This document shows positions 1 through 64,000 of a DNA stretch of 64,000 nt, piece by piece (positions within the stretch are counted from its first letter, which is position 1; each line of letters starts with the position of its first letter). Below the pieces are notes generated by a model that saw only the letters and a list, made by a program, of their open reading frames with translations, made no database searches and was not told the DNA's origin. The stretch is from a virus, in IMG/VR virus record IMGVR_UViG_3300025085_002722, positions 66,386-130,385 of that record; one strand, given 5' to 3'. The position numbers were made by a program, and so were the translations under genes.

Positions 1-567
1 ATGAATCAACTTTGGGCACAGGCAAATGGTGAATGGCTTATGTTATGGAACGACGATGCTATTATGGAAACTAAAGATTGGGATTTAGAAATTGGAAAAT
101 TTGATAATGAATTTGCATTATTAAAATTTAATCAAACAAATCACAAACATCCATACGCATTATTTCCAGTAATACCCACAGACTGGTGCAGGCTTATTGG
201 TACGTTTAGTATGAATGCACAAAATGATGCATGGCTAAACTTAATTGCAAAACCGTTAAATATTATTAAAGATATACCTGTAGATGTATTTCATGACCGA
301 TTCGATCTTACTGGAAACAACGATGACGATATTTTTAGAAGCAGAGAATATGCAGAAGGCAATCCAGAAGATCCAAATGATTTAATGAGTGAAAATAATA
401 TCAGAATGCGAGATGCAGTTATACACAAAATTGCATGGTTCTGTAACAGAATTGGTCAAACAGATACAAGCGATTATTTTGATAAAGTAAAAGCAGGCGA
501 AATAGACCCATTTGATGATTGGAAAAAAATAAGAGAAGAATCCGTGGGATTAGGCTCAGGTTTATAA
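1..567 (+). CDS. GT-A/GT2-like glycosyltransferase, probably 5'-truncated by the window edge
   Basis: ANGEWLMLWNDD (DxD-type) segment and later NDAW motif typical of GT2-like enzymes; ORF begins at base 1. Confidence 0.55.
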   Translation: MNQLWAQANGEWLMLWNDDAIMETKDWDLEIGKFDNEFALLKFNQTNHKHPYALFPVIPTDWCRLIGTFSMNAQNDAWLNLIAKPLNIIKDIPVDVFHDRFDLTGNNDDDIFRSREYAEGNPEDPNDLMSENNIRMRDAVIHKIAWFCNRIGQTDTSDYFDKVKAGEIDPFDDWKKIREESVGLGSGL

Positions 568-570
568 ATA
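563..570 (+). promoter_or_regulatory. T4-type late promoter TATAAATA, 5 nt before the rpmG ATG
   Basis: TATAAATA-gtagc-ATG; the same spacing recurs at 15 other genes. Confidence 0.75.
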
Positions 571-575
571 GTAGC

Positions 576-779
576 ATGGCAAAGAAAGATAAAAGACGAA
601 CTATTGTATACTTAATTCCAGAGGGCGAGACTAGGGATCATCATACTTATCATTATACCGCAGTGAAAACTAAAGCACTTGTGATAGAAAACAGGAAATT
701 AAAACTTAAAAAATATAATCCTGTAAAGAGAATTCATGAGTATTTTGTTGAAGCAAAACTTCCCCCTCATAGTAAATAA
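576..779 (+). CDS. rpmG: 50S ribosomal protein bL33-like (Cys-less)
   Basis: MAKK..RTIVYL...YTAVK...KLKLKKYNPVKRIHEYFVEAK matches the L33 pattern (KLELKKYDP..R.H..F.E.K); true start ATG 576. Confidence 0.8.
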   Translation: MAKKDKRRTIVYLIPEGETRDHHTYHYTAVKTKALVIENRKLKLKKYNPVKRIHEYFVEAKLPPHSK

Positions 780-783
780 ATAG

Positions 784-812
784 TTGACAACTACTATAAA
801 TAGTTGTATAAT
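784..812 (+). promoter_or_regulatory. sigma70-type promoter with an embedded late promoter
   Basis: TTGACA 784-789, 17-nt spacer, TATAAT 807-812; TATAAATA at 795-802. Confidence 0.8.
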
Positions 813-821
813 AAGGTTATT

Positions 822-1259
822 ATGGAAGAAACAAGACATAAAATATTTGTTTACGGCACACTTAAATCTGACGGTATAAGAGGCCTTGATAAGCCTATAT
901 ACGATTTCTATGATTCAACCAAAGAAATTGAAAAAGAATTTATAGGTAAAGCAGTCACAACAGGCTCTAAATTTTCAATGGTAGATCTAGGTTCATTTCC
1001 TGGCGTTATTGTCAATGGTTACAATGACATATATGGCGAAGTATATGAAGGTGGTAACGACTTGTTAGAATACTGCGACATGATAGAGGGGCACCAAGGC
1101 GATAGAGCAAAAAACTTTTATCACAGAGATGAAGTTAATACATCTGAAGGCAAAGCATTCATTTATCATTTAGATCCATACTATGGAGATGAATATCCTA
1201 ACTATAAAGAAAGTAACCGAATTACATTCAAAAATAATATATTAACATGGCTAAATTAG
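822..1259 (+). CDS. gamma-glutamylcyclotransferase (AIG2/GGACT-like)
   Basis: IFVYGTLK, DLGSFPG, GEVY, CDMIEG, Y.R motifs; start at ATG 822. Confidence 0.85.
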   Translation: MEETRHKIFVYGTLKSDGIRGLDKPIYDFYDSTKEIEKEFIGKAVTTGSKFSMVDLGSFPGVIVNGYNDIYGEVYEGGNDLLEYCDMIEGHQGDRAKNFYHRDEVNTSEGKAFIYHLDPYYGDEYPNYKESNRITFKNNILTWLN

Positions 1260-1801
1260 AGTTTGCAAATAAATGGAACACTACACTAGTAGATCCAAAA
1301 CACCCAGCATTAAGAAATGAATGCACAATTGACCCATTAAGTACAGACATAGTATGGCAAACAGTTGAGCAAGAAATGTTTACACTGATGCAGGAAAGAT
1401 TTGGTATAGGCTTAGCCGCACCGCAACTGGGCAATCCAGTAAAAATGTTTGTAATGAGACACAGCACAGAAGGAAATATTGCAGTATACAATCCTAAAAT
1501 ATTAAATGTGTCAGAAGAACTAATTACATTAGAAGAAGGTTGTCTAACATTTCCAGGATTGTTTTTCCACATAACTAGACCAGAAGGCGTACAAGTAACT
1601 TTTCAAAATAGAAAAGGCGAAGAGCAAAGTATGGAACTTACTGGCATGGATTCTCGTTGCTTTCAGCACGAAACAGATCATTTGCATGGCATACTAAATC
1701 TCACTTATGTAAGCGATTTTAAATTACAAAGAGCACTAAAGAAAAGAGATAAACTGATTAAAAAGTATTCTAAGATGAAAAGATCAGTAAGTCGTGTATG
1801 A
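1247..1801 (+). CDS. def: peptide deformylase
   Basis: Three PDF motifs: GIGLAAPQLG, EGCLT, QHETDHLHG. Confidence 0.95.
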   Translation: MAKLEFANKWNTTLVDPKHPALRNECTIDPLSTDIVWQTVEQEMFTLMQERFGIGLAAPQLGNPVKMFVMRHSTEGNIAVYNPKILNVSEELITLEEGCLTFPGLFFHITRPEGVQVTFQNRKGEEQSMELTGMDSRCFQHETDHLHGILNLTYVSDFKLQRALKKRDKLIKKYSKMKRSVSRV

Positions 1802-2379
1802 TTCCTAAATACATTTATGACATTCCTAGTTTTATGTCTAAATCAGATTTAGAATCTATTTATGAATTAGCATATACGTTACCAAGCAATAGCAATATAT
1901 TAGAGATTGGTTGTTTTTTAGGCAGTACTACTTGCACATTAAAAGAAGCAAGACAAGACTCCAATTTATATTGTGTTGACAAATGGACTAACGAAAAACA
2001 CAATGATTACTTAATAGGATATGACAGGAAGACTGTATATGAAAATATAGAGTCTGATAAAAATTTATGGAGACAAAACACAAACCACTTAGATAATGTT
2101 TTTATGTATCATGAGAAGTCCCTAGATGTTGAATTTGACAACGATTTAAAATTTGATTTAATATTCTTAGATGGTGATCATACATATGGTAATGTAATAG
2201 GAGAATTAATTAAATTTTCAAAGTTATTAAAACCAAACGGTATCTTAGCAGGACATGATTACGGATGTGCACCTTGCACAAAAGCAATTACAAAGTTTGC
2301 TACAGACAATAATTTAGCAGTATGGACATTATTAGATAGTGTCTGGTACTATAAACCTTATAGGACTAGACAGAAATGA
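1798..2379 (+). CDS. class I SAM methyltransferase (Methyltransf_24-like)
   Basis: LEIGCFLGST, FDLIFLDGDHTY, GILAGHDY. Confidence 0.85.
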   Translation: MIPKYIYDIPSFMSKSDLESIYELAYTLPSNSNILEIGCFLGSTTCTLKEARQDSNLYCVDKWTNEKHNDYLIGYDRKTVYENIESDKNLWRQNTNHLDNVFMYHEKSLDVEFDNDLKFDLIFLDGDHTYGNVIGELIKFSKLLKPNGILAGHDYGCAPCTKAITKFATDNNLAVWTLLDSVWYYKPYRTRQK

Positions 2380-3221
2380 ATTATCCTTTTTGGGTCTTTG
2401 ATTGGAATCGTGTAAAAGACTATCAAGACAAATATCCACTTTCAAAAGAAATTTTTAAACACCCATTAAGTCTATGGTACGGTAATCGTAGTGCCAAACC
2501 TATAAAAGGTTTAGATAAAAGTTTACGCAGATTATTCAAACGTAGTGGCGACAAAATGCCTGTGCTAGTAGTGTATAATATGCCTAATAGAGATATAGGC
2601 CAATACAGCAAAGGTGGTGCCAAAACACATGACGAGTACTTAGAATTTATACAAGATTTTGCTAATGGTGTAGGCAAAAACAAGCCAATTGTAATTTTTG
2701 AACCTGATGCTATACCTCATTTAACTCATTTAGAAAAAGGAGAAGCAAACAGTAGGATAAAATTAATTAAGCAGGCATTAGAAATTTTAACACAAACTAA
2801 TGCCATTGTGTATATAGATGTAGGGCATAGTAATTGGTTAAGTCCAGAAGAAGTAAATCAATTTTTAAATAAAGTTACCAATACTAAAGTAAGAGGGTTT
2901 AGTGTTAATGTAAGTAACTATAGAACAACAATAGAGTCGGCAAAGTGGGCAAACAAAATATGCGAACTTAGACCACAAGATTATTATGTTATAGATACTA
3001 GTCGTAACGGCAATGGTCCACATGGCAACGATTGGTGTAATCCACCAGGTAGAGCATTAGGTGAGCCGCCTACATGCAATACAGGATTAGAAAAATGCGA
3101 TGCATTTTTATGGATTAAGATACCAGGAGAAAGCGATGGTAAAGCAAACGGTGGCCCAAGAGCAGGAAGAATGTGGGGCGAAATGGCCGAAGAACTAGTA
3201 AGGAATACAAAATGGATTTAA
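2376..3221 (+). CDS. glycoside hydrolase family 6 (cellulase/endoglucanase-like)
   Basis: VVYNMPNRD, IFEPDA, YIDVGHSNW, GFSVNVSNY, IDTSRNG, WCNPPGRALG, LWIKIPGESDG. Confidence 0.9.
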   Translation: MNYPFWVFDWNRVKDYQDKYPLSKEIFKHPLSLWYGNRSAKPIKGLDKSLRRLFKRSGDKMPVLVVYNMPNRDIGQYSKGGAKTHDEYLEFIQDFANGVGKNKPIVIFEPDAIPHLTHLEKGEANSRIKLIKQALEILTQTNAIVYIDVGHSNWLSPEEVNQFLNKVTNTKVRGFSVNVSNYRTTIESAKWANKICELRPQDYYVIDTSRNGNGPHGNDWCNPPGRALGEPPTCNTGLEKCDAFLWIKIPGESDGKANGGPRAGRMWGEMAEELVRNTKWI

Positions 3222-3790
3222 ACTTTTTTATAATAGATAACTTTTATAATAATCCAGACGAAGTTAGAGAATTTGCTCTGAGTAAAGAATTTATAACAGA
3301 AGGCAATTATCCTGGATTTAGAACAGGTCCAGAAGAACTACAACAACATAATTATTTAAAAACATTTTTTGAAGATAGTGTAATTAAAAAACCTATATCA
3401 TACTGGCCAGAAGAATACAACACCGCTTATCAAATTACTACAGAAGAATCTAAAACATGGATACACCATGACGAAACTACATGGGCGGCAGTATTATACT
3501 TAACACCAGATGCACCTGCAGAATCAGGTACAGGAATATACAGACATAAACCAACAGGTATTTATGAATGGGACGGTGTTAAAGATTCTGCATCTGATTT
3601 TAATAATTCTGATTTTCTAGGTGAGGAACATATAGACCAATGGGAGCAGATTGCATTTGTTGGTAATGTGTATAATAGATTAGTATGCTACAAAGGGTCA
3701 CTTTACCATAGAAGTGTATTACCAGGATTTGGAACAGATAAATATTCAGGTAGATTGTTTCAAACATTCTTCTTTGATACACAGGAATAG
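3212..3790 (+). CDS. 2OG-Fe(II) oxygenase (DUF6445-like)
   Basis: IIDNFYNNPD.VR..AL, WIHHD, AAVLYLTP, YNRLV.Y...YH.S, RLFQTFF; start ATG 3212. Confidence 0.8.
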   Translation: MDLNFFIIDNFYNNPDEVREFALSKEFITEGNYPGFRTGPEELQQHNYLKTFFEDSVIKKPISYWPEEYNTAYQITTEESKTWIHHDETTWAAVLYLTPDAPAESGTGIYRHKPTGIYEWDGVKDSASDFNNSDFLGEEHIDQWEQIAFVGNVYNRLVCYKGSLYHRSVLPGFGTDKYSGRLFQTFFFDTQE

Positions 3791-3791
3791 T

Positions 3792-4469
3792 ATGGATAGT
3801 TATTGGGAATGGAATAAAGAAAATTTTGAATGGCATTACGACCCAGCATCTAAGCATTCTGATGTACAATATGTAGGAAAATACATATCTAATCCTAAAT
3901 CATTGCTTACAGACGTTGTAAGTGCGTCTAGTGACGCCTTAAGTGACGATGATGCATACAATGAAGTAAGTATCAAAGGCTCACCCTACAACAAAGAAGC
4001 CGCAGAAATAATGGAAGGGTATCATAACGATTTAACTCGTGCAGGATTTACTCCACATAATACAGGCGGCAGACAAACATGGAATGTATGCGATACGTTT
4101 CGTAAAATGGGCAAATTAAGTGGATTAAAAAATCCGCAAATAATGTTTTTAGAACAACCACCAGGAAAAGCAATTCCATGGCATAGAGACAGTTATAATA
4201 ATTACAGACGTAACTTTGCTAAAGTTAGCGACGACACTGAAGTAATACGTTACCTAGTTCAACTCAATGACTGGAAATGGGGACACTATGTATCAGTGGG
4301 CAATGATGTACTACACCAATACCAGATAGGCGACATACATTGCTGGAAAGAAGGCATCTATCATGCTACCGGTAATGTAGGCTATTGGCCTAGATGGAGT
4401 TTGACTATTACTGGACAAGTAACACCCGATTCATTGCATTTGCACGAACCAAAAGAAATACTAATATGA
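3792..4469 (+). CDS. cupin/2OG-Fe(II) oxygenase-like protein
   Basis: QPPG..IPWHRD ... YHATGN.G..PR facial-triad pattern; start ATG 3792. Confidence 0.65.
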
Positions 4470-4795
4470 CATTTGTAGTTGGAAGTCCTTGTGTAGGGTG
4501 TAAAGATACTGCCTGTGTAAAAGTATGCCCGGTAGATTGCTTTTATGAAGGTCCTGACATGCTTTACATTGATCCTGATGAATGCATTGACTGTGCATTA
4601 TGTGAGCCAGAGTGTCCAGTAGAGGCAATTTGGAGCGATGACGAATTACCACAAGAAGAAATACCATTTATTGAAATCAACGAAAAAGGTGCAGAAAAAT
4701 ACAGAGATGCAAATATCGTAGATCAACAAGACCCAATGGCACATAAATCACCATATACTACTGCTGAAGCAATCAAGGTAGTCCAGATAGATTAG
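4466..4795 (+). CDS. fdxA: 7Fe-type ferredoxin (FdxA family)
   Basis: [50 protein letters not shown]. Confidence 0.92.
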
Positions 4796-4816
4796 AAAAA
4801 AGAGATAAATACTACT

Positions 4817-6934
4817 ATGGACCGTTCAAATATCATAGTAGTATACCCAGGTAGATTCCAACCTTTTCACAAAGGACACAAATCAGTGTTCGATCATCTT
4901 AAAAAAGATTGGCCCAATGTGTATATTGCTACTACAGATAAAGTTCAACCAGGCAAATCACCATTTAATTTCCAAGATAAATTAAATTTTATGCAACTGT
5001 TAGGCATTGATAAAAGCGATGTATTACAAGTAAGAAATACCTATAATGGGCAAGAGTATATAGACCAATTTGGAAAGAAATATACGGCTAGCGACACAGG
5101 GTTAATTATGGTCGTAAGCGAAAAAGATATGGTTGATGACCCAAGATTTAACTTCCCCAATACGGGAATGTCTATTAAAAAGGACGGTAATCCTGCATAT
5201 TTACAAAAATTTACACACGAAGATGATATGAAAAGTATGGCTGAGCATGGTTATATAATGACTGCTCCTATCTTTCCATTTAAAATAGCAGGACACGATT
5301 TAGATAGTGCTAGTCAAATTAGAGAACTAATGAAAGGAGACGAGGAACTAGCAAAACAGGTTTTTGTGGACTTATATGATAAATACAACGAAGACCTATT
5401 TAAACTTATACGAGAGAAACTTATGATAACTGAACAGGAAATATTAGACTTAAATTACATGCGTAAAATGGCAGGTTTACAAGAAGTAGACGTAGAAGAT
5501 GATGACTATGCTGTAAATCCAGGCTACAAAGAATTAGCAATGTTTGACCAATTAGGTAAAATTATTGACAGTGACGAAATGTCCAAAGATGGCGATGACA
5601 TTAAAAATCCTAAAGCAACTGTAAAAACAGATGACGGTTCAGAAATGGAAGTAAGTGTAGGTGAAGCAAAAGCACTAAGAAAAATGGTAAACATGTTAGG
5701 CTCAAATAGAGGAGCAGAAGATAAATCACCTAGAGAAAAGTTTTTAGATGCAATTCAAAAAGAAGAAGGTCTTAGAAATATGATCGAATTTGCTAATTCA
5801 AAAGGTTTAGTAGAAGAAGGTGATGTAGAAGAAGGTAACGCATTTGGTAAAGCGGCTAGAAACACTAAGAAAGGTGATAAATTTTCAGTAGGTGGCAAAA
5901 CATTTACAAAAGAAGAATTACAAGATTTAGACTTAAATGATATTAGATACGAATATGGTGTAAAACCAGTATCAGAAGGCGGTAATGCATTTGATATAGC
6001 AATGACAGATGCAGAAGATGTTATTATGACATGCCAGGATCAAGAACAATGTTTAAAAGATTTAGAAGCATTAATTAAAGATGGTGCAGAAGATTGGGAC
6101 GACAAATATGCAAACGAAGTTGTGCAAGACTACATCACATTAGTAGTTGACAAAGGCATAGAAGGTGCCAAAGAATATGTAGAACAACAAAATAGAGAAC
6201 CAGAAGGTGCACCATTAGAAAGCAAAGGTGCAAAACCAGACTACATTGACATAGACGGCGATGGCGACAAAGAAGAGCCAATGAAAAAAGCAGTCCAAGA
6301 CAAAAAGAAGAAAGAAGAAAGTTTCGATGTTAGTGCAGAACAAAGTCGTGAGGAAGAAGCATACGAAGAACTAATGACTGCATTACAAACTGGCGGTGAA
6401 GAAGCATACGCAAAAGCATGTGGTTTATCAATGAAAGAACTAGATGATGAAATGAGTGAGATTGGCAGAGACCTAAACTTACACATGGATGACGACAGAG
6501 ATGAAATTATTCAAAGACATGCTGAAGATACTGTAGACAATGCAGATTGGAAAGACTATGGTGGAATGGATCATGACATGGAAGAAGATTTAGAAAGAAT
6601 GCGTGAATTAGCAGGCATTGAAGAAATTGCTGAAGAGTGGAACTGGGATAAAGGTAGTTATGATGAAAAAGCAGGCTATGATGCTAACTTTAGTCTGTGG
6701 TCACAAGAAGTACAAAAAGAAAGAAGTCAATATGGCGACAAACCATTTAGCAGTCATGAGGAAATGCATCAAGAGTTTAAGAAAATAATGAAAGATAGAG
6801 GTATCAATGTATTTGCTCAACAACGGTTAAGTCAAAAAATGAAGGCTCAAAAAAGTCAAGCAGAAATAGACAAGTACAGAGGCATTAAGGTGAAGGACTT
6901 TGAGAGAAGAAGATCTGAAATGCAAACGGATTAA
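4817..6934 (+). CDS. HxGH nucleotidyltransferase-like domain fused to a long acidic modular tail; putative virion-internal protein
   Basis: YPGRFQPFHKGH and SASQIR in the N-terminal ~200 aa; acidic C-terminus with LAG helices and a DxDxDG module; late promoter at 4805-4811. Confidence 0.7.
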   Translation: MDRSNIIVVYPGRFQPFHKGHKSVFDHLKKDWPNVYIATTDKVQPGKSPFNFQDKLNFMQLLGIDKSDVLQVRNTYNGQEYIDQFGKKYTASDTGLIMVVSEKDMVDDPRFNFPNTGMSIKKDGNPAYLQKFTHEDDMKSMAEHGYIMTAPIFPFKIAGHDLDSASQIRELMKGDEELAKQVFVDLYDKYNEDLFKLIREKLMITEQEILDLNYMRKMAGLQEVDVEDDDYAVNPGYKELAMFDQLGKIIDSDEMSKDGDDIKNPKATVKTDDGSEMEVSVGEAKALRKMVNMLGSNRGAEDKSPREKFLDAIQKEEGLRNMIEFANSKGLVEEGDVEEGNAFGKAARNTKKGDKFSVGGKTFTKEELQDLDLNDIRYEYGVKPVSEGGNAFDIAMTDAEDVIMTCQDQEQCLKDLEALIKDGAEDWDDKYANEVVQDYITLVVDKGIEGAKEYVEQQNREPEGAPLESKGAKPDYIDIDGDGDKEEPMKKAVQDKKKKEESFDVSAEQSREEEAYEELMTALQTGGEEAYAKACGLSMKELDDEMSEIGRDLNLHMDDDRDEIIQRHAEDTVDNADWKDYGGMDHDMEEDLERMRELAGIEEIAEEWNWDKGSYDEKAGYDANFSLWSQEVQKERSQYGDKPFSSHEEMHQEFKKIMKDRGINVFAQQRLSQKMKAQKSQAEIDKYRGIKVKDFERRRSEMQTD

Positions 6935-6939
6935 TAACT

Positions 6940-7350
6940 ATGAGTAAAGTAAGCAAAGAAGATTTAAAAAAACTACAAGAACTAGCAGGTATCTATTCAG
7001 ATGTATTGAACGAAAAAGATGCTGGTAGTAGTGATAATGTTAAAGTAGCAATAGGTCATGTTGACAACGAAAGAGACATGATTAGAAGACAACTTTATCA
7101 AATGGGAAAATATAGTGTAGAGATCGCAAAGACTCTAAAAGAATTGCCAGATTCAGATTTCCCAAATTGGTGGCAAGCAAAAATTACTAAAGCAGGTGCA
7201 TATCTAAGTGATTGTGCTCACTATTTAGAAAACACAATGCAAGTACCACCGGGTAACGATATGACCAAAGACGGCACACAAGGTGAAGTTGAAGTATCAG
7301 ATCCAGACTATTACGACGATAGAGATCAAGACCCAAGCGGCGTAAGTTAA
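6940..7350 (+). CDS. hypothetical phage protein with LAG helix
   Basis: DLKKLQELAGI N-terminal motif; PNWWQAKITKA..YL helical module. Confidence 0.6.
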   Translation: MSKVSKEDLKKLQELAGIYSDVLNEKDAGSSDNVKVAIGHVDNERDMIRRQLYQMGKYSVEIAKTLKELPDSDFPNWWQAKITKAGAYLSDCAHYLENTMQVPPGNDMTKDGTQGEVEVSDPDYYDDRDQDPSGVS

Positions 7351-7391
7351 ATCCCCCATAAATATCCATAGTATCAAGGATAAATATTACT

Positions 7392-8045
7392 ATGGCGGCT
7401 ACAAAGCAAGAGCAATACATTGATAAGATTTTTAGAGACGGTGCAATAGAATTTGTAGGGTCAGAAAGTCGACTAGATTTTGACTTAATGGGCATAGATC
7501 ATTTTAATTACCTACAGCATCATGGACTTAGATCTCATCATATATTTTTTGATGTTGGTTGTGGAGCATTAAGAACAGGCCAATATGTTATACCCTATCT
7601 AGAGTCAGGTAATTATTTTGGGTTAGACAGAATGCCCCAACTTATAGAGTATGGATTAAATGACGTACTAACACCAGAAATTGTTTTTGAAAAACATCCT
7701 AAATTTTCAGTAAACAATAATTTTAATTGCACGTTTGTAGATAAGCCAGTTGATTTTGCATGGTGTCAAAGTTTAATGTCACATCTTAGTATAGCAGATA
7801 TAACAGAATGCTTAAAAAACGTTAAAGAAACATTAGCACCTAATGGCAGAATTTACTTTACTTACTTCCAATTAGAAGGGTTAGATGAGGAAGAAGCAAT
7901 CTCTCAAGACACTCACTCAAAAGAAGATTTATTCTACAGCGAACAACACATGGATAAAATTGTTGCAAGTTGTGGTCTAACCAAATTATATAACGGTCCA
8001 GTAGGTCATCCAAGAGGCCAATGGATGTACATTTGTAAGGTATAA
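7392..8045 (+). CDS. class I SAM methyltransferase
   Basis: FDVGCGALRTG, YFGLD, DFAWCQSLMSHL; late promoter at 7380-7386. Confidence 0.85.
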   Translation: MAATKQEQYIDKIFRDGAIEFVGSESRLDFDLMGIDHFNYLQHHGLRSHHIFFDVGCGALRTGQYVIPYLESGNYFGLDRMPQLIEYGLNDVLTPEIVFEKHPKFSVNNNFNCTFVDKPVDFAWCQSLMSHLSIADITECLKNVKETLAPNGRIYFTYFQLEGLDEEEAISQDTHSKEDLFYSEQHMDKIVASCGLTKLYNGPVGHPRGQWMYICKV

Positions 8046-8053
8046 ATAAAAGC

Positions 8054-8275
8054 ATGAAAGTTGAAATATATAGCAAACCACAATGTCCATACTGTGATAT
8101 GGCAAAAGCATTAGCAGAACAAAAAGGTCACGACTTAACAGTTAAAATGTTAGACGTTGACTTTGACAGGGAAGCATTAATGGAAGCATTTCCAGGAGCA
8201 AGAACATTCCCACAAATCATTGTAGACGGTGATAAAATTGGTGGGTATCAAGAATACAAAAAATTAGTAGGCTAA
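8054..8275 (+). CDS. grx: glutaredoxin
   Basis: CPYC, RTFPQI, IGGY. Confidence 0.93.
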   Translation: MKVEIYSKPQCPYCDMAKALAEQKGHDLTVKMLDVDFDREALMEAFPGARTFPQIIVDGDKIGGYQEYKKLVG

Positions 8276-8814
8276 CATTGAGTCGCTACGATATGTATTC
8301 TATCCTCATTGCTGAAATTTACTGCAGAATGTAAATAATTCGTACGCATCAAGTACGCATTTCCTGTTTCTAAATTATAGTGTTTAATCGAAATATCAGT
8401 GCCTGTATCGGTTGCTACAGGCTTATCCGTATAGAACATTAAAAAGTTTTGATCGTTTGTTATAACAGGTATATGTAGGCGTAAGACGTGCTCTATGCCG
8501 TCATGATGTACACTATAGCAAGTACGTCTTGCTTTATTCATTATACGCCATCTACAGTAATTAGGTGCTAAACTTTGTATTAATTCGCCTATATAACGGT
8601 CTTTTATGCTGTTATTAACTACAGTAAAGTCGCTTTCTTTATGCTGTAAATCTGCTATTTTACCAATGCTACAATCCCAATCATCATTGCCTGTAATACT
8701 AGTTAGACTGATTTGTTGGTTAGGCCACAGCGGAGTTAAGCCAAGTATATACTCAACATCTTCTAAAAGTTGTTTTTGATCTATTTGTAATGATAGTTTG
8801 TTTATATATTCCAT
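8272..8814 (-). CDS. Asp/Asn beta-hydroxylase-like 2OG-Fe(II) oxygenase
   Basis: YSVHHD, RLHIPVITN, HSAVN...DRIHIV. Confidence 0.8.
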   Translation of the reverse strand: MEYINKLSLQIDQKQLLEDVEYILGLTPLWPNQQISLTSITGNDDWDCSIGKIADLQHKESDFTVVNNSIKDRYIGELIQSLAPNYCRWRIMNKARRTCYSVHHDGIEHVLRLHIPVITNDQNFLMFYTDKPVATDTGTDISIKHYNLETGNAYLMRTNYLHSAVNFSNEDRIHIVATQC

Positions 8815-9437
8815 GGTACTAACTTAAATCGCTCTTTTGGTAAGCCTAAGTATTTAGTAGTCCATTCGCTTTGTCCAACAAAATCTAAGTGTGCCCATTC
8901 TGATTTTTTAGAAATTTTTTCTTGAGCAAAGTTTTTCCAATCAGTGTTTATTAATAATTCTTCTATTACAGATTTCTTTTCTTCTACTTCATCTATACTG
9001 TTACTATCCCACTCATAGTGAAACAGTTCCATAGTATTATATCTACTATCGTCTACATAATCTAAACTGATGTCTATACCCCACTTAGGTTTAAGTTGAG
9101 TCATTTTGTGTATAAGATGATTACCTTCTGCCCAATGCCCTAACTGTTCTAGAGCATATCCGTGATAACCTTTGCGTTCGAATAAGTAAGAATGATTAAT
9201 ATGAGGACCACTAGTTGTGTGTGATTCGAACCAAGGTTTTGCTATTGATCTTCTGTAACGTACAAAGTCTGCTTCGCCCATATTCTTTTTAGCATACTCT
9301 TGCTCAAGTGGACATAAGTCATATCCGCTTTGATCAAATAAATGTAACATATCAGCATTAGGACAATGCATTTGTTCTATGGCTGTACCCCAAGTACCTT
9401 GTGAATTAAATGTATTTTTGCTTTTACTAATGTGCAT
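8802..9437 (-). CDS. hypothetical protein
   Basis: 211-aa ORF overlapping both neighbours in a minus-strand operon. Confidence 0.6.
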   Translation of the reverse strand: MHISKSKNTFNSQGTWGTAIEQMHCPNADMLHLFDQSGYDLCPLEQEYAKKNMGEADFVRYRRSIAKPWFESHTTSGPHINHSYLFERKGYHGYALEQLGHWAEGNHLIHKMTQLKPKWGIDISLDYVDDSRYNTMELFHYEWDSNSIDEVEEKKSVIEELLINTDWKNFAQEKISKKSEWAHLDFVGQSEWTTKYLGLPKERFKLVPWNI

Positions 9438-12234: not shown

Positions 12235-12239
12235 ACTAC

Positions 12240-12734: not shown

Positions 12735-12753
12735 AAATTTATTTATAGATATT

Positions 12754-12963: not shown

Positions 12964-12964
12964 A

Positions 12965-13123: not shown

Positions 13124-13161
13124 CTGTCTCCTTTTGTTGAAATATATTTATGAAAGGAGAT

Positions 13162-13419: not shown

Positions 13420-13420
13420 A

Positions 13421-51488: not shown

Positions 51489-51497
51489 ATATTTTAC

Positions 51498-55362: not shown

Positions 55363-56886
55363 TTAGCCGCCGTGTTTCAAAATTGTTGATCTAATATAAT
55401 TTTCTGTGTGCATCATTCCTAACTGATATAGCCTATCTGGATCTTGATCTTTTGCTGTGTCAGGATGACTTTGGCCGCCTAATGCTTTGTCTTTTAGATA
55501 TTCCCAATTAGTGTATTCCATGAAATTACCAAACCCAAGTCTAGTAGATGTTTCTCTTCTAAATTTTTCTTTAAGAACAATTGACTCTTCTGATGTTATC
55601 CAATCGTTTTTCCATTCGTGCATATGAGTAGTTTCTGCACCATCGGCTGTTACTGTAAATCCAAACTTCTCTGGATTTTTGCTAAAGTCACTTGCCCATG
55701 TGTCACCCGGATACGGTGCGCCAATGCCTACTTGATTAATGTATGTGTTATGCAACAACTGATGTTCAACTATGTAATCAAAGCCTGCTTGAATTTTTTC
55801 TTCGCTGTCATAAGTTAATCCTATCATAAAAGAACCAAACCTATATAAGTCAGGCACATTCTCTTTTAACAATCTAAGTGACTCTAAGTTTTTAGCACCA
55901 CCTGTAATTTTTCTTATGTTCTTACCGGCTTTGTTATCTAATGTTTCAATGCCAAAGAAAACACCTTTAAATCCTATTTCGGCCATTTGTTCTATTTGAT
56001 ATCTCTTTGCACTCAACATGTCAAGTCTTGCGTAACCTGTGAACTCGGGTTGATAATCTAATTGTCTTACTGCGGTTAGTAAATTTTCATACTTCTGATC
56101 TACTTCATTAGTTGTTTCATCTGATAAATTAAAATGTTTTACTCCGTATCTGCTGTGTGCTTCACTTAAAAACTCTACTAAATTATCTACGCTCTGAAAT
56201 TGTGTTGCTGATTTTTTAAATGGTGTATTACAAAAACTGCAATTAAATTTACACCCTACACCTAACTCAATTGTCAAGACATCACGTGGATTGAAAGAAT
56301 CGCTATCATGTAATGCCATTACAATAGGTGGCTCTGGTATAACGTCTGGATTTTTTAATTTGTACCATATACTGTTATTGTGATCTGTTTCGTAGTAATG
56401 TTCGCTCATGTCTCCTTTGTTTAACCAAGTAGGAAACATTGTTAAACTTCTACCAATAAAGTATGCATCAATTAAATAAGGTAATTGTGTTTCAGCAGTA
56501 AATTCTTTTCTTTTTACAGGCAACGGCCTATATAATCCGCCTGCCGCAACTCTAACATTATAGTTTTTTCTAACTGCTTCAATGATTTTAACTAAACGCG
56601 AATCACCTAAAACAGCATGATGCCCAATTGTTAAACTAAGGCCTATGACACCATCTGTACAACCTGAAAAATGTTTTTCCATTATCAACGTTAATCCAGA
56701 AACAAACTCTGGCTTTGCTAACCAATCGTTGATGTATTCTATATTAATAGTATCGTATCCGTTGTCTCGCATACATTGTGCTACCATGTGAGCCCCGGGT
56801 GCTCTAGCAGTATTTTTGCCTAAACGTGTTTCATGTCCGCCGGATGTGAGTGCCGCCGGTGCACTTAATACTATTGCTTTCTTCAT
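55363..56886 (-). CDS. radical SAM protein (B12-binding class B-like architecture)
   Basis: GCKFNCSFC, SDETTN, YARLD, FFGIET, FMIGL. Confidence 0.85.
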   Translation of the reverse strand: MKKAIVLSAPAALTSGGHETRLGKNTARAPGAHMVAQCMRDNGYDTINIEYINDWLAKPEFVSGLTLIMEKHFSGCTDGVIGLSLTIGHHAVLGDSRLVKIIEAVRKNYNVRVAAGGLYRPLPVKRKEFTAETQLPYLIDAYFIGRSLTMFPTWLNKGDMSEHYYETDHNNSIWYKLKNPDVIPEPPIVMALHDSDSFNPRDVLTIELGVGCKFNCSFCNTPFKKSATQFQSVDNLVEFLSEAHSRYGVKHFNLSDETTNEVDQKYENLLTAVRQLDYQPEFTGYARLDMLSAKRYQIEQMAEIGFKGVFFGIETLDNKAGKNIRKITGGAKNLESLRLLKENVPDLYRFGSFMIGLTYDSEEKIQAGFDYIVEHQLLHNTYINQVGIGAPYPGDTWASDFSKNPEKFGFTVTADGAETTHMHEWKNDWITSEESIVLKEKFRRETSTRLGFGNFMEYTNWEYLKDKALGGQSHPDTAKDQDPDRLYQLGMMHTENYIRSTILKHGG

Positions 56887-56934
56887 GCAAGTATTTATCG
56901 TTGAGTATATTACATTTCTATAAATACTTGCATG
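56884..56934. repeat. perfect 15-bp inverted repeat forming two divergent late promoter/start units
   Basis: CATGCAAGTATTTAT (56884-98) / ATAAATACTTGCATG (56920-34). Confidence 0.85.
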
Positions 56935-57839: not shown

Positions 57840-58053
57840 GTTTTGGATACCTTCCGGAGGAGCCGGCATACCTGCAAAAATGAAAAGCGGACAGGTAAGC
57901 AGACACATGCGAGAGTGGTGTGAACGTTATAATGTTGAACCTGTAGACGTAATCAAAAGCAAAGGTGCACTCACATACTATTTTCTAAACACAGATATTC
58001 CAAAATTTGTATTGACGTGGAACGGTGACTTTGCTTACAAACTCACAGAGTGA
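57826..58053 (+). CDS. hypothetical protein
   Basis: 75-aa ORF coupled to neighbours. Confidence 0.5.
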   Translation: MKGVEFWIPSGGAGIPAKMKSGQVSRHMREWCERYNVEPVDVIKSKGALTYYFLNTDIPKFVLTWNGDFAYKLTE

Positions 58054-58064
58054 TAAATACTGTT

Positions 58065-59144
58065 ATGAGACTAAATGAATTAAAAGGTGATCAAAGAGAA
58101 CGAGTCGAAGCAATTTATGATAAGTTGAATGATATATTCTATAAAAAAATTGCTCCTGCTATGAAAGAGTTAGGAAATTACTATGCTCAACAATATCCTA
58201 AACCAACGTGGATTGCTTATACAAAAAATTTAGAATCAGTAATTAAAGGCTGGCAAACATTACAAAAATTAATAATTGATCAAACTAATGTTACACGCAA
58301 ACAAGAACCTGCTTATAGATTTCCAGCAGTTGTCATTGATACTTTAACAAAAAGTCATGCACAAATGGTTAAGAATGCTAGACTAACAGCAAGTGATATC
58401 AATATGAATAAATCCACTGCTGGTAGATTAATGTATACTGATGATCCTAATGATCAAATTCTTAATGACGTACGAAATAAAATTAATGAATTAGTAACAG
58501 CATTAAGAGGTAGTTTTCCAACTAAACAAAAATGGAGTAAACTATTAGACTTACCCAAAGGAACACAAACTATAGTAGATCCTGTTGAACCGGCTGAACC
58601 AGGTACAGACATTAGTACTGATGTTAAACTTAAACAAATACCAAACCTGCATCCAATGGGAACTATTGACGGTGAACTTATTCGTAAAGGTCAAGAAAAG
58701 ACAGCAGGTGATTTAGAAAAGTTTGGGCAAATTATAGACGGCGAGTGGGAAGTCATAGACAACACTATGAAACAATTACCTGACCTAAGACCAAAACAGT
58801 TACTAGATATGAGACCTAAACCAGGTGACTATGTTATGTGGACTGGTGGTGCAAGGAGTAGTAGACCCAATCAACCAAACTACGGTAAAGTAGTTAGTGT
58901 TAGAGATAACGGTGTATTAAATATTACCAGTGTTAACCAACAACCTAATCCTAGTAGGCAAGGCAGAGAATTTGGCTTGAATCCTACCAGCATACAAAAA
59001 GTCCTTAAACAAGCAGATGCACAAAAATTAATGCCACAACAAGATCCAGACAAATACAGAAAAGGCAATGCGTTCAAACAAGGAATAAAAAAAGTAGCAA
59101 GTACCAACCAAGGATACAAGTACAAAGGTAACCAAAACGTCTAA
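58065..59144 (+). CDS. hypothetical, putative head-internal protein
   Basis: Start MRLNEL, 5 nt after ATAAATA (58053-59); KPGDYV.W SH3-like C-terminal module. Confidence 0.6.
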   Translation: MRLNELKGDQRERVEAIYDKLNDIFYKKIAPAMKELGNYYAQQYPKPTWIAYTKNLESVIKGWQTLQKLIIDQTNVTRKQEPAYRFPAVVIDTLTKSHAQMVKNARLTASDINMNKSTAGRLMYTDDPNDQILNDVRNKINELVTALRGSFPTKQKWSKLLDLPKGTQTIVDPVEPAEPGTDISTDVKLKQIPNLHPMGTIDGELIRKGQEKTAGDLEKFGQIIDGEWEVIDNTMKQLPDLRPKQLLDMRPKPGDYVMWTGGARSSRPNQPNYGKVVSVRDNGVLNITSVNQQPNPSRQGREFGLNPTSIQKVLKQADAQKLMPQQDPDKYRKGNAFKQGIKKVASTNQGYKYKGNQNV

Positions 59145-59395
59145 TAGATTTTTCTAATCATATAATCAAAAGGCTGTACAGTTCTAATTTCAAATGCTTT
59201 GCCATCTAACTCTACACCTTTAACATGTGTAGGAGTTCTTTTTGAAATACTTTTTAATAGAAATACTTTTTTGCTTTTAGGATTGGGTGTTAGATTGCCC
59301 TCAGCATCTTCTCGTGTACCGCCATCAAACCACACAGTTAATTCAAACTCTTCTTTGATTAATGTGTTCCACCAATTAATTATTGCTCTGATCAT
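59141..59395 (-). CDS. hypothetical protein
   Basis: ATAAATA at 59401-07, 5 nt before the ATG. Confidence 0.65.
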   Translation of the reverse strand: MIRAIINWWNTLIKEEFELTVWFDGGTREDAEGNLTPNPKSKKVFLLKSISKRTPTHVKGVELDGKAFEIRTVQPFDYMIRKIY

Positions 59396-59403
59396 AATAC
59401 TAT

Positions 59404-60210
59404 TTATGATACCGATATCGGTTTATTAGTAATCGATTCTATATAGCAATATTTAAGAAATGCAGGATAAGGCATTTTGGCATTCCAACTTTGACATGTA
59501 TCGTTCATATTGGTACATGTAATATTAAAATCTTTATCGAATCCTACTTCCCAAATAATATCACCATAGTAATGCTTTTCTTTTATGTAATCAGGAATAG
59601 GATCACGCAAGTCTATTGTGCATAATTCTTGTACATTACTTGCAGTCAGACCCACATACTCGTTAATATGAATAGAGTTCCATTCAAAGTCTGGTAAAAA
59701 TTCTGTAAATTTTTGTACATCTTTGTGCAACTGATGTATGCCATTGTGCTGAGGATCACTTGGCACTTTTTTATCAAACTGTACATCACCTACACTAATT
59801 TTAGCATGTGACGGATATACGTTAGTGATATTTTGTGAACGCATATTTGAAAACATTTGAGCCATGCCTTCGCCTAATAGTGCATTACTAATTATTTCAT
59901 GTATGTATAAATCACCTACCGGCAATAAATCAGTGCAGATATTTAATTCAACTACTGATACATTAGGCGTATCTGCAAATACTTTTCTCAAATACTCACA
60001 AGTATTAGGATTATGATCACATGATATTACAGAACTTGCTCCACCGCATAATGCCAAGTAAGTTAGTATTCCTGAACCAGCACCGCAATCTACTACAACT
60101 TTGTCTCGACATATACCGCTTGTTAAAAATTCAGCATACGCATTTGTACGTTTATAATCGCAAACTAAAGAATGTAGATCTTGAATAGTGTAATTTGAAA
60201 AACTCTTCAC
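59404..60210 (-). CDS. SAM methyltransferase, PRMT-like
   Basis: RTNAY, VVVDCGAGSGILT..A..GA..V, IHEIISNALLGEG double-E-loop-like motif, YP. Confidence 0.7.
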   Translation of the reverse strand: MKSFSNYTIQDLHSLVCDYKRTNAYAEFLTSGICRDKVVVDCGAGSGILTYLALCGGASSVISCDHNPNTCEYLRKVFADTPNVSVVELNICTDLLPVGDLYIHEIISNALLGEGMAQMFSNMRSQNITNVYPSHAKISVGDVQFDKKVPSDPQHNGIHQLHKDVQKFTEFLPDFEWNSIHINEYVGLTASNVQELCTIDLRDPIPDYIKEKHYYGDIIWEVGFDKDFNITCTNMNDTCQSWNAKMPYPAFLKYCYIESITNKPISVS

Positions 60211-60228
60211 AATGATATTTATATGTTT

Positions 60229-61092
60229 TTATGATGTAGGTGCTGAATTCTTATACGGATGATCTGATGGTAATGCTGAAGTTCTACCCCACTTGTGAGC
60301 AAGATAACCTTCTGCTTTTTCCAGTATAGATATGTCAGTACCGCTGGTACCTGGAATGTCTGCTACAGCAAAGAACTCTCCTAACTTACCATCAAGTTCT
60401 TGTGACGCTCTGTTTCTCATCAATCTTAATTCTTGATTTGTTTGTAAACTGTTGTCATAGTCATTTACTGGTGTAAATGCGTTAGAACCATCTACCCTAA
60501 TACCAATTTGATTGCCTGACTTGTTAAACCAACAAGCAACGATGTGCCAACTGTTTCTGGTTAAACTTTTTAAACTCCATAATTCCAAATTACCAATACT
60601 GCTACTGATCCTGTTAGAACTTAATCCATCTAAATCTAATTCACCTGGCCAAGAGTTTGATGAGTTACCACTACTTATTGCATAATCTCTTTTTGGTGAA
60701 CTATTTGTTTCATAACTCCAAAGAGAATCTTGGGTACTATTTGATCCTTCAAATCTAAACACACCTATTGCCCAGTGATTACCACTTGATACCTGTGCCG
60801 AATATGTTGTACTCTGTAAGTAATCACTGTTGCCGTCAAAATCAAACACATTCAAACCGTTTTGTGTGCTGGAATTTGTTACTGGGTTACCACCTACATT
60901 CATAGTGTATGTACCTGCTTTGTCAGTTACTGACTGTAATGATGTTCCGCTTCTTGAATAACTTGAACTGTCACTGGCGTCTATCCAAGCAACTGCGGTT
61001 ATATCTGTGCTTGGTGACCATGGTGTTGATTCTTCGGCAACACTTCTTCTACCTGCGTAAAATGATCCTGTTGTTGAACTGATGAATGGCAT
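60229..61092 (-). CDS. LamG/concanavalin-like putative tail protein
   Basis: WIDASD...TDK, NGLNVFDFDG, GE.., EGYLAHKWG...LP.DHPYK. Confidence 0.7.
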   Translation of the reverse strand: MPFISSTTGSFYAGRRSVAEESTPWSPSTDITAVAWIDASDSSSYSRSGTSLQSVTDKAGTYTMNVGGNPVTNSSTQNGLNVFDFDGNSDYLQSTTYSAQVSSGNHWAIGVFRFEGSNSTQDSLWSYETNSSPKRDYAISSGNSSNSWPGELDLDGLSSNRISSSIGNLELWSLKSLTRNSWHIVACWFNKSGNQIGIRVDGSNAFTPVNDYDNSLQTNQELRLMRNRASQELDGKLGEFFAVADIPGTSGTDISILEKAEGYLAHKWGRTSALPSDHPYKNSAPTS

Positions 61093-62399
61093 TATGTGAA
61101 GTCAACTAACTGTCCAAGTACTACATAACTTCCACTTACTCTTAGTATGGTAAATGAAACAGCATCTATGCCGTTAGCAGTTCCTGTTGGTGCTGAACCT
61201 CCTTGCCAATTAATTGTTTGTGCTGATCCACTTATTTGTACAGCACTTGGTATTCTTGCTGTAGCACCTTGATCCAATATCAATGTTAGGTTAGTACTGT
61301 AGTTACTGCTGAGTCCTAAGTTTGTAAAATTAGCAGTAAAGTTAGCACTGATACTGCTGTGATAAAATATATGTCCATTATCGCAATCGTGTGTAACTAC
61401 ACCTGTAGCACCTGTGAGTGAACTGAACTTTTCACTTACACCATCTTCTATAATTAATTGATTGTTTACTGTGAGTGGACCTGTTACACCAATTGCAGTA
61501 CTGCTGTTGGCACCAATATAAACTGCACTACTATTTTGGCCTATGTTTACATAACCGTTTTGTAATGCTCCACTACCTGCATCAATGTCTACATTACCAC
61601 CTGTGCTGTTTAGTCCTGTGGCATCACCACCTTCTAAAGCAAGTGATGTACCGTCTGTGCTATCAGTACTAATACTTGCAGGTTGTACATCTGCGCCATG
61701 ATTTGCTAATTTGTTCCAACTACCACCGTGAGCAAAGTATAATGCTCCTTCGGCATGTACGTGAGCAATAGCACCGTGATATGTACTTGCACTTGGCAAG
61801 TCACTGGTACTACTATACAAGTATTGTGTTTGACGTAGGTCAACATTGTTTCCACCTAATATACTGAGGTTACCGTTAGCACCTAATGTTAATGTTTGTG
61901 ATCCACCTGCTCCAGTATCTCCTTTGTCTCCAGTAGCACCTGCGGGTCCAGTTGGTCCAGTTGCTCCTGCAGGTCCTTGTGGTCCTACTGGTCCTACTAC
62001 TGTACTTGCTTCACCTTTCTCGCCTTTGGCTCCTGCTGGTCCTTGTGGCCCAGTGGGTCCTGGTACTGTACTGTCTGCACCAGTTGGTCCTACATTACCT
62101 TGTGGTCCTGCTCCGCCTGATTCTCCCTTTTGACCTTTGGCTCCGTCTACTCCGCTGGTACCTGCTGGTCCAGTTGCGCCAGTTCCGGTTTCACCCTTTT
62201 CACCTTTGCCTCCAGTAGGTCCTGTGGCTCCAGTTGGGCCAACCTCACCTTTTTCTCCGCCGCCGGGTCCAGGTTCTCCTTTGTCGCCTTTACTGCCGCC
62301 GGAAGTTTCCCACTTCTCGCCATCGTAGGTCCATAGTTTACTATCGAACGTGTAAGTATCGCCGTTACTGGGTGAGTTTGGAAAATCGATATTGCTCAT
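61092..62399 (-). CDS. collagen-repeat tail fibre-like protein
   Basis: [13 protein letters not shown]...W.YDG.KW N-terminus, long Gly-X-Y tract, [17 protein letters not shown]-terminal domain. Confidence 0.8.
61908..62300 (-). repeat. collagen-like Gly-X-Y repeat
   Basis: [13 protein letters not shown] and GPQGP triplets. Confidence 0.85.
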
Positions 62400-62472
62400 G
62401 TAAATCCTCTTTAAGTGTATTTATCGAAATCACAGTGATAGCATATAGTTTGAAAAAGTGATAAATACTGTA

Positions 62473-64000
62473 ATGCGATTATTTGAAGTAATACAATTAT
62501 TGGAATACAATAAAGGTGCCACACTAAACAACTGGGGCGAACGTATTGCTCAAGCGGCAAAATTTAATCGGAAGTACATATCAGATCAATTCTTTAATAA
62601 TTTTGATGGTGAAATGGAATACGAGGGTCACGATCCTGAAGACGACGGTGATATTGCTAACGTTGTACTGATGAATTTAGAACGCATGGACCCCACTCCT
62701 AACAAACAGTATGTAATGACCTTAGTACGTTGGTATATAGGCAACAGCAAAAAATTCAAACAACTACAACAAGATTACACTGATTGGCGTAGAGATACTA
62801 ATTTTGACATATATGGCGAATACGATCATCCAGACTCTCAATATCCAGAAGACATCCGAGACTTAGAAGACTTTGCAGATGAGTTTGATGATTTCGAAAA
62901 CGACATGAGTAATTATGTAATGGACGCAGAAAACTTGAACACATTCAAGTTAGAAGATGCTGATCAAATACGTGACGCATTAGAAACCTATGAAAGAATA
63001 AAACCACAACTGCAACCCAATGAACGTGACATAGGCAGATTTAAATCATTCTATCGCTTTGAAGACTTTGTGGACAGCAAGAACAGTTTTGATGCCGATG
63101 ACGGTGAAATCAAAGATGAACTAAACAGAAGTGATGTAAAAGTATTATACAACGGTCCATTGGGCACAGTCACAGTACCTAAAAGTGAAGAAGCCAGTTG
63201 TCTATTAGGTAAAGGCACCAAATGGTGTACTGCCAGTACACGAGGAGACAATTGGTTTGATCATTACAACAAAAAAGGCGATTTGATAATATACAACGAA
63301 AAGCCAGGCAATAACAAGTATCAGTTCCATGTGACATTAGATGGCATAGAAGCCAGAGATGCACGTGATAGGCTTTTATCATTTTCACAGCAAAGTAAAT
63401 TTGTAAATGAACATCCTATAATGAGCAAAGTCATAAAAGGTGAACAAGAAAAGATATTTGCAACCATGGCACAACAACCATGGACCACTGATGCTATAAC
63501 CAATGACGGTGGCGACCCTACTAGGTTAGTGAGACACTTTATAAAGTTCAATGAAAAACACAAAGGTGGTGTGATGCGTTATGTAGATGAATACTATGTT
63601 AAGTTTGCATTACCATCTATTTTAGACAGCAGAGTCACAATACCCAATAGAGAAATGGTAGACTTAATGCTCACATACGCAAAACAACGTGGCAAGCCAT
63701 GGCCTGAAATGATGGCGTTGATGATGCAGATATTACGCAAAGCGGCTGAAAGGGCAGATTTCTCCAGCAACATAGAATTAAAATCAATCAATAGACTGGT
63801 TGCTCAATTAGACACAGTTGTAGGACCAGTGGGCAACAACCCTGAACTAGAGCAGTTCAAAGCAGAAATGATAGACAAAATAAAGGCCAGTCAAGTAGGC
63901 GAAAGCAATGTGTACAAAGCCGATAGAGAATTCCCCACATACGAACTGTGGAATTTTCCCAAACACCCAACAGAGTTCGGAGAACGTGTTATGACCACAC
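62473..64000 (+). CDS. large phage protein with PcfJ-like motif; runs off the window end (missed by the ORF track)
   Basis: Hand translation MRLFEVIQLLEY...DPTPNKQY...VPKSEEASCLLGKGTKWCTAS...FDHYN...KYQFH; open to base 64000; ATAAATA at 62461-67. Confidence 0.75.
   Translation, partial: MRLFEVIQLLEYNKGATLNNWGERIAQAAKFNRKYISDQFFNNFDGEMEYEGHDPEDDGDIANVVLMNLERMDPTPNKQYVMTLVRWYIGNSKKFKQLQQDYTDWRRDTNFDIYGEYDHPDSQYPEDIRDLEDFADEFDDFENDMSNYVMDAENLNTFKLEDADQIRDALETYERIKPQLQPNERDIGRFKSFYRFEDFVDSKNSFDADDGEIKDELNRSDVKVLYNGPLGTVTVPKSEEASCLLGKGTKWCTASTRGDNWFDHYNKKGDLIIYNEKPGNNKYQFHVTLDGIEARDARDRLLSFSQQSKFVNEHPIMSKVIKGEQEKIFATMAQQPWTTDAITNDGGDPTRLVRHFIKFNEKHKGGVMRYVDEYYVKFALPSILDSRVTIPNREMVDLMLTYAKQRGKPWPEMMALMMQILRKAAERADFSSNIELKSINRLVAQLDTVVGPVGNNPELEQFKAEMIDKIKASQVGESNVYKADREFPTYELWNFPKHPTEFGERVMTT

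Follow-up and report, generated by a model that had tools for sequence, protein, structure and literature searches.

The DNA analyzed in the present study is the final 64 kb (64,000 nucleotides; hereafter the window) of the IMG/VR contig IMGVR_UViG_3300025085_002722. This contig comprises 130,385 bp with a G+C content of 35.5%, is linear in IMG/VR, and was rated 25% complete by CheckV. The element in question is the heptamer ATAAATA, which precedes the start codons of 16 window genes by five or six nucleotides (nt). We write N5, N6, and so on for the number of nt between this box and a start codon, and refer to starts at these short distances as fused. Coordinates are those of the window unless the contig is named.

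PHROGs and Pfam searches were performed on 176 greedy non-overlapping open reading frames (ORFs) of at least 45 amino acids (aa) and a few added ORFs. Judged by the gene content obtained, the source is a distant T4-like myophage (an uncultured marine giant). Structural and packaging genes on the contig encode a gp15-like sheath stabilizer, sheath, tube, gp4-like head closure protein, gp13-like adaptor, and large terminase, for which the top isolate match was PA5oct (58%). Replication and recombination genes encode gp32, UvsX, UvsY, UvsW, gp41, and gp61. Auxiliary genes in the window include those for peptide deformylase, bS21, a ClpX-like protein, ClpS, Hsp20, the SUF operon, ferritin, cytochrome c, peroxiredoxin, the NeuB operon, and radical SAM enzymes.

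ATAAATA boxes fused to start codons

The window contains 37 ATAAATA boxes, and this number itself is not enriched (34.8 expected). Thirteen of the boxes are followed by N5-ATG, one by N5-GTG, and two by N6-ATG. These 16 starts had been listed in a sequence-only reading of the window; all of them are real, their spacing is exactly as claimed, and the ORFs that they open are 58 to 755 aa long. The spacing was compared with dinucleotide-preserving shuffles (300 of the window and 200 of the contig). N5- or N6-ATG occurred 15 times in the window versus a mean of 1.43 in the shuffles (standard deviation 1.25, maximum 6). Throughout the contig, 24 of 71 boxes are followed by N5-ATG, three by N6-ATG, and one by ATG at N4, and the shuffles gave a mean of 1.5 and a maximum of 6 at N5. 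ATAAATA was the only outlier among the 7-mers found at N5 from ATG in the contig (24 occurrences; 7 for the runner-up). The contig has 28 fused starts, corresponding to about one gene in five; 26 are ATG and two are GTG, one of which lies in the window.

The consensus of 26 aligned sites, in which ATAAATA is invariant by selection, is [G/T]ATAAATA-c-T-a-g-T-ATG. Boxes with one mismatch (CTAAATA, TTAAATA, and GTAAATA) also favor this distance, with 12 at N5 versus 1–6 at other spacings. A palindrome suggested by the N5 consensus (ATACTAGTAT) was rejected; the individual sites do not bear it out. The fused starts are genuine because every ATG opens an ORF and several are followed 3–11 residues later by the start of a Pfam domain (glutaredoxin, DUF1289, and both cytidylyltransferases). 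The claim that these starts leave no room for a Shine-Dalgarno (SD) sequence was also supported: positions −17 to −5 are occupied by the box, and an AGGA, GGAG, or GAGG core was present there in one of 28 fused starts versus 35 of 96 other ATG starts.

On the plus strand, the first N5-ATG is that at 576 (unit 564–578, box 564–570), which opens a 67-aa weakly bL33-like ORF (576–779); the TAA of the box is the stop codon of the upstream gene. ATG 4817 (unit 4805–4819, box 4805–4811) belongs to a 705-aa protein with a cytidylyltransferase domain. Its box and N5 spacing are kept in the relatives G006–G009 and have also survived in G001, where 1 nt immediately upstream is deleted. ATG 7392 (unit 7380–7394, box 7380–7386) opens a methyltransferase gene with a second box 22 nt upstream (7358–7364). 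The glutaredoxin gene, the Pfam match of which begins at residue 3, starts at ATG 8054 (unit 8042–8056, box 8042–8048); the five spacer letters differ in G008 and G009 and the spacing is retained. Further N5 units lead to a 533-aa protein with a divergent gene upstream (ATG 26749, unit 26737–26751, box 26737–26743), a CMP-sugar cytidylyltransferase with a GC hairpin and T-run just upstream (ATG 45306, unit 45294–45308, box 45294–45300), a DUF1289 protein (ATG 56932, unit 56920–56934, box 56920–56926), a 359-aa protein (ATG 58065, unit 58053–58067, box 58053–58059), and an ORF of at least 509 aa and of unknown function that runs off the contig end (ATG 62473, unit 62461–62475, box 62461–62467). 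The N6 unit on this strand leads to a 126-aa protein (ATG 51498, unit 51485–51500, box 51485–51491).

On the minus strand, N5-ATG units open the genes for a 2OG-Fe(II) oxygenase (ATG 12734, unit 12732–12746, box 12746–12740), a 251-aa protein (ATG 14665, unit 14663–14677, box 14677–14671), a radical SAM protein that forms a divergent pair with the DUF1289 gene (ATG 56886, unit 56884–56898, box 56898–56892), and an 84-aa protein (ATG 59395, unit 59393–59407, box 59407–59401). The N6 unit (ATG 12234, unit 12232–12247, box 12247–12241) precedes a 755-aa protein of unknown function, and the N5-GTG unit (GTG 60210, unit 60208–60222, box 60222–60216) a 268-aa methyltransferase-like protein. A terminator-like hairpin with a T-run (14725–14708) lies upstream of the 14665 unit. 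The region 14704–14730 forms a bidirectional terminator-like hairpin (CCCCC...GGGGG, with T-runs on both strands) between two minus-strand units. A pattern scan of IMG/VR returned no relatives of the radical SAM gene at 56886, and a 485-aa fused gene had no match in the phage collection.

Two variant sites had also been proposed. At ClpS, GTAAATA (37967–37973) is present at N6 from ATG 37980 (plus strand, unit 37967–37982). At 17670, there is no good box; the in-frame ATG 17688, located 18 nt inside the ORF begun at 17670, has TTAAATA (17676–17682) at N5 instead (plus strand, unit 17676–17690). Outside the window, a box-N5-ATG unit at contig 44253–44267 lies in frame inside a 2,222-aa gene and could yield a 569-aa C-terminal isoform, similar to the internal starts in T4 gene 17.

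The layout is conserved. Among 32 close loci, 58 of 165 boxes are at N5; 12 distant loci have 11 N5 and four N6 sites among 49 boxes. The terminase orthologue retains TTAAATA-N6, ATAAGTA-N5, or CTAAATA-N5 at a protein identity of 53–59%. The records of G006–G009 yielded 7, 10, 11, and 15 matches, respectively, versus one each for a reversed-pattern control, and 9 of 43 were found in G004.

Probable promoter placement and alternative readings

According to PMC1524935, the T4 late box TATAAATA lies at −13 to −6, other T4-like phages conserve its first T poorly, and Aeh1 has CTAAATA. The factor that reads T4 late promoters is gp55, which works with gp33 and the gp45 clamp (PMC2988020). Transcription from promoters of this type depends on replication and occurs late in infection. 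The position of the T4 box places +1 at box+6, which is the A of ATG when the spacing is N5. We consider it likely that ATAAATA is part of a T4-type late promoter and that the mRNAs of the fused genes begin at AUG and are leaderless. The heptamer would be the −12 to −6 part of this promoter, a lone −10-like box without a −35 element, and would presumably be read by the host RNA polymerase with a gp55-like phage sigma factor. The start codon would be placed at the sixth base after the box at the fused genes; the transcript would start with AUG and lack an SD, and the ribosome would bind the 5′-terminal AUG (the leaderless route). A second set of boxes would drive ordinary leaders of approximately 11–60 nt with strong AGGAG-type sites, and several host-type TTGACA/TATAAT promoters are likewise fused to ATG at N6 or N7.

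The spacing of all 71 contig boxes to the next ORF start is bimodal: 25 are at N5, three at N6, one at N8, none at N9–N16, and 25 at N17–N66; of the remainder, three are N1 artefacts, and no start is close to the other 14. This is the pattern expected of a promoter, which should leave either no leader at all or one that can accommodate an SD. The N17–N66 boxes include those of the sheath, tube, and tail fibre genes. Examples on the minus strand of the window are a collagen-repeat tail fibre gene (62397–62424; box 62424–62418, 18 nt with AAGAGGA, ATG 62399), the unit at 13121–13151 (box 13151–13145, 21 nt with AAGGAG, ATG 13123), and the gene for a 612-aa phrog_8578 protein (17574–17644; box 17644–17638, 61-nt leader with GGAGA, ATG 17576). 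A pyrimidine at box+5 followed by a purine at box+6 was observed in 14 of 18 leadered boxes (pyrimidine-A in 12) versus two of 19 boxes without a start nearby (Fisher p=4.7e-5), and these two classes were set without regard to the positions compared. The fused class has a pyrimidine at −1 in 25 of 26 aligned sites. The pyrimidine-purine step in leadered boxes suggests that transcription starts at box+6, with or without an ATG there, and that the A of ATG is +1 at fused starts. No conserved column was found among the 20 positions upstream of the box in the 26 aligned sites, i.e., there is no −35 element.

The boxes precede genes for the large terminase, gp13-like adaptor, virion proteins, sheath, tube, and tail fibre as well as many enzyme genes; one precedes a homologue of a PA5oct structural protein, with the alignment running from residue 1. 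At approximately seven fused sites, the neighboring gene is divergent, as in the 56886/56932 pair with its 45-nt gap, and terminator-like hairpins precede three. These contexts fit transcription units and bear on a different reading, in which the heptamer acts on the RNA as an A/U-rich ribosome-loading or termination-reinitiation element at an SD-like distance in polycistronic messages. The box lies at −12 to −6, the usual place of an SD, and 14 of 29 fused sites overlap or abut an upstream stop codon on the same strand, with the TAA of the box serving as the stop in six. However, an RNA element of this type does not account for sites that face divergent genes or come after terminators, and the boxes 17–66 nt from a start do not replace the SD, since an SD-like core (AGGAG-type) follows within the last 16 nt in 19 of 25. 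Moreover, a translation signal would have no use for the pyrimidine-purine step seen in leadered boxes, and the motif equals the T4-family late promoter described in PMC1524935. An action on the RNA is, thus, very unlikely.

We regard as extremely unlikely the proposal that the box is an endoribonuclease site cut five bases downstream, with 5′-AUG mRNAs arising by processing. The fixed distance and the pyrimidine-purine step might mark a cleavage site; no nuclease candidate was linked to the box. The identity of the box with a known promoter class, its location where divergent units begin and downstream of terminators, and its association with virion genes, as in T4, all argue for a promoter.

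RNA data were obtained from the marine metatranscriptome runs X4, X6, and X7 (one sample) and the salt-marsh run X8. These runs were compared as assembled contigs (32 of 412 pieces) without strand, and the ends of such contigs are no evidence on transcript starts. Virion and replication genes at contig 1–20000 match these RNA-library contigs from two studies at 90–99% identity. Based on these matches, those RNA samples contain the phage or a close relative; the matches do not by themselves prove transcription. Among the pieces listed, RNA contigs start 11–38 nt inside predicted transcripts, with the same limit on their ends: at 10050 and 10053 in the tube gene versus a predicted +1 near 10038, at 15979 and 15983 versus 15960, at 4009 and 4020 versus 4047 (minus strand), and at 4111 versus 4099 (contig coordinates). 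The divergent gap 4047–4099 is covered by none of the RNA contigs listed, and uncovered parts are no evidence.

Two of the RNA contigs, X4 5426–6053 and X7 15829–16503, extend from the upstream gene across the fused starts at 5553 and 15960, respectively (contig coordinates), and carry no strand or transcript information. Such read-through forms part of a third alternative, in which the box is a promoter with an inexact start. Initiation scattered by 1–3 nt, or shifted to the next purine, would produce very short leaders or 5′ ends inside the codon, and some genes would be expressed through read-through. Three contig sites at N6 and one at N8 fit this reading, as do the terminase box at N5 or N6 in relatives and the range of N6 to N10 among fused sigma-70-type promoters. 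In contrast, the preference for N5 is sharp (24 versus one at N4 and three at N6), the pyrimidine-purine step is located at box+5/+6 in both classes, and the T4 box at −13 to −6 predicts +1 at box+6. An inexact start is unlikely.

Several observations weigh against leaderless late mRNAs. Leaderless initiation in E. coli strongly prefers AUG, and the contig has two fused GTG starts. Immediately upstream of the box, the base is G in 12, T in 7, A in 4, and C in 3 of 26 sites and, thus, the element is not the full T4 octamer. Most of the fused window genes encode enzymes or unknowns rather than classical late proteins. Fused ORFs are not less structured over their first 40 nt than other genes (−1.77 vs −2.53 kcal/mol, p=0.23). 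At the 14 sites with overlapping or abutting stop codons, these stops mean that translational coupling on read-through messages could contribute. The RNA runs matching the phage are assembled contigs, which are unable to show 5′ ends. Furthermore, PHROGs, Pfam, tblastn, and family searches detected no gp55, gp33, or gp45 in the contig, and no gp55 match was found in G001 or G002, two closer relatives (both are fragments).

A gp55-like sigma factor elsewhere in the genome had been named as something to look for. The searches comprised tblastn with HTVC008M gp55, gp33, and gp45, phrog_234 and phrog_12791 at E values up to 10, and the gp55-like protein of G003; none was found in the 130-kb contig, rated 25% complete. 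The absence of the three proteins is uninformative because the contig is a fragment. A gp55-like gene was detected in the relative G003 (phrog_234, E=1.3e-23), one of five relatives' records, all of which are fragments. The gene is a member of an IMG/VR family of at least 600 stretches, and 80 loci around members of this family have a spacing peak at N5 (27 of 268 boxes).

In the sequence-only reading, a late programme was proposed to rely on leaderless mRNAs. The placement of a promoter for a start on the A of ATG is supported by its identity with the T4 box, the bimodal spacing, the pyrimidine-purine step, and conservation, whereas we infer late timing and dependence on gp55 only; the start site and the route of translation are likewise predictions from sequence.

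Host-type promoters, ribosomal genes, and neighboring features

Approximately 20 near-consensus TTGACN-16/18-TATAAT sites were found; five lie at N6 or N7 from ATG, and the others have leaders of at least 18 nt. The two fused sigma-70-type promoters named previously were both recovered on the plus strand, TTGACC-17-TATATT-N7-ATG 33184 (33148–33186) and TTGACA-18-TATAAT-N6-ATG 40868 of SufC (40832–40870). Upstream of ATG 822, late boxes at 776–782 and 796–802 are interleaved with a perfect TTGACA(784)-17-TATAAT(812) located 9 nt before the ATG (plus strand, 776–824), which is possibly a combined early/late promoter. Its string ATAAATAGTTGACA was found again at 22102. At contig 64516–64556, a late box and TTGACA-16-TATAAT overlap (TATAATAAATA), and a 48-aa ORF begins with an ATG at N5, which gives the putative early and late promoters one start region in common.

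The earlier reading had assigned bS21, bL33, and peptide deformylase genes to the window and suggested that the phage may retune host ribosomes, a link that the present results do not support. The bS21 gene (plus strand, 30075–30543; ORF 30130–30543, S21 domain at residues 38–88; Pfam E=1.7e-14) and the peptide deformylase gene (plus strand, 1247–1801; E=4.7e-37) were both identified. The bL33 assignment of the 67-aa ORF is weakly supported: PF00471 matched at E=7e-4 with 17.8 bits, below the 25-bit cut-off, and 20 of 21 matches in a PDB sequence search were bL33 (best E=0.014). The bS21 gene follows TTGACA-17-TATAAT at 30075 and a 26-nt leader with AAGAGG, i.e., a sigma-70-type promoter and SD. 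According to PMC10491246, the translation of leaderless lambda cI mRNA in E. coli was enhanced in a uS2-deficient mutant, the ribosomes of which also lack bS21. We speculate that a clade of marine giant T4-like phages may have two translation channels. Abundant virion proteins would be produced from late mRNAs with SD, and approximately one-fifth of genes (mostly for enzymes and minor virion parts) from leaderless messages of late and early ATG-fused promoters, with phage bS21 (early, host-type promoter) and the fused bL33-like protein altering host ribosomes so that 5′-AUG messages are read efficiently. This scheme as a whole is decidedly improbable.

The seven-gene operon 45306–51488 has a fused late box at its head and includes genes for CMP-sugar cytidylyltransferase, NeuB, an oxidoreductase, a short-chain dehydrogenase, and a radical SAM enzyme. 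Its composition suggests nonulosonic-acid synthesis under late control. The preceding region, 28859–45250, is an island of proteostasis, iron-sulfur, and redox genes that encode a ClpX-like protein, bS21, cytochrome c, ferritin, Hsp20, ClpS, SufB, SufC, SufD, SufS, a SufT-like protein, DUF805, and peroxiredoxin. A 375-aa ORF without a family match (39718–40845) is located between SufB and SufC, and the fused sigma-70-type promoter of SufC lies inside its end. A host call from SufB was not possible; its identity to many unrelated Proteobacteria and other phyla is 61–66%. A protein with a glycosyl hydrolase family 6 (cellulase-type) domain is encoded at 2376–3221 (Pfam E=1.6e-53), which is unusual in a phage.

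The contig begins within a membrane-anchored adenylate/guanylate cyclase gene (contig 1–555), the missing N-terminal part of which is supplied by the relative G002 (approximately 460 aa with transmembrane stretches). We considered whether the contig ends are the two halves of one cyclase gene in a circular genome. This was ruled out: the G002 cyclase has a different N-terminus and, therefore, the final window ORF is not a cyclase. The contig is a linear fragment rather than a circle because the contig of a relative extends past its start with sequence unlike the window end.

Comparison with known systems

We found no published description of late boxes fused to start codons in T4-like phages, including HTVC008M; many subscription journals were outside the search. 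If the start sites are as predicted, leaderless messages are the source of a large proportion of the proteins of a widespread marine phage group, the hosts of which otherwise use SD. This would be the first phage programme, beyond a single gene, built on the leaderless route. The prediction of starts from SD would misplace fused starts; at 576, 14665, 26749, 58065, and 62473, the longest ORF begins at a different position from the fused ATG. The fused box offers a simple rule for spotting late genes in uncultured T4-like phages. The layout also ties promoter position to translation level in a way that can be tested, and a direct test is possible in the cultured HTVC008M/Pelagibacter pair, which shares the layout.

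In HTVC008M (NC_020484), nine of 45 ATAAATA boxes are at N5, and 13 N5 or N6 fused sites fall on annotated coding sequence starts. This phage resembles the source phage in having late boxes fused to coding sequence starts, bS21, and Hsp20, and it encodes homologues of gp55, gp33, and gp45. However, its fused share is lower and it is distant kin (large terminase 33% identical). The 26-nt gap between its divergent genes gp025 and gp026 (18917–18942, between starts at 18916 and 18943) consists almost wholly of two back-to-back box-N5 units, with no space for any leader.

The layout is absent in T4, in which N5-ATG follows one of 44 ATAAATA and none of 21 TATAAATA sites (100 of 169 kb). It is also absent in PA5oct (8 of 145, control 4) and Syn9 (three TAAATA-N5-ATG, control three). 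The boxes of the source phage resemble T4 late promoters in their core heptamer, the lack of a −35 element, their placement before virion and packaging genes, and their frequent location within the preceding gene or at its end, or as back-to-back boxes in divergent pairs. T4 sites likewise show a pyrimidine-purine step at box+5/+6 (approximately 13 of 21 by eye). In contrast, T4 late genes have SD leaders, whereas 24 of 71 boxes in the source phage are at N5-ATG, and the first T of the octamer is not conserved in the source phage.

Leaderless genes of Actinobacteria and Deinococcus-Thermus similarly have a −10-type box at a fixed short distance and no SD, and a −10 box beside an ORF without an SD is the standard signature for inferring such genes (PMC3160421, PMC3898074, and PMC12340547). 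Those are housekeeping-sigma promoters of cells, whereas the source phage has a late-type promoter mixed with the SD mode (35 of 96 starts). The textbook leaderless message of a phage is lambda cI mRNA from pRM, which starts with AUG and is read by 70S ribosomes (PMC10491246). Lambda cI is one regulatory gene, whereas approximately one-fifth of the genes of the source phage have a dedicated promoter class.

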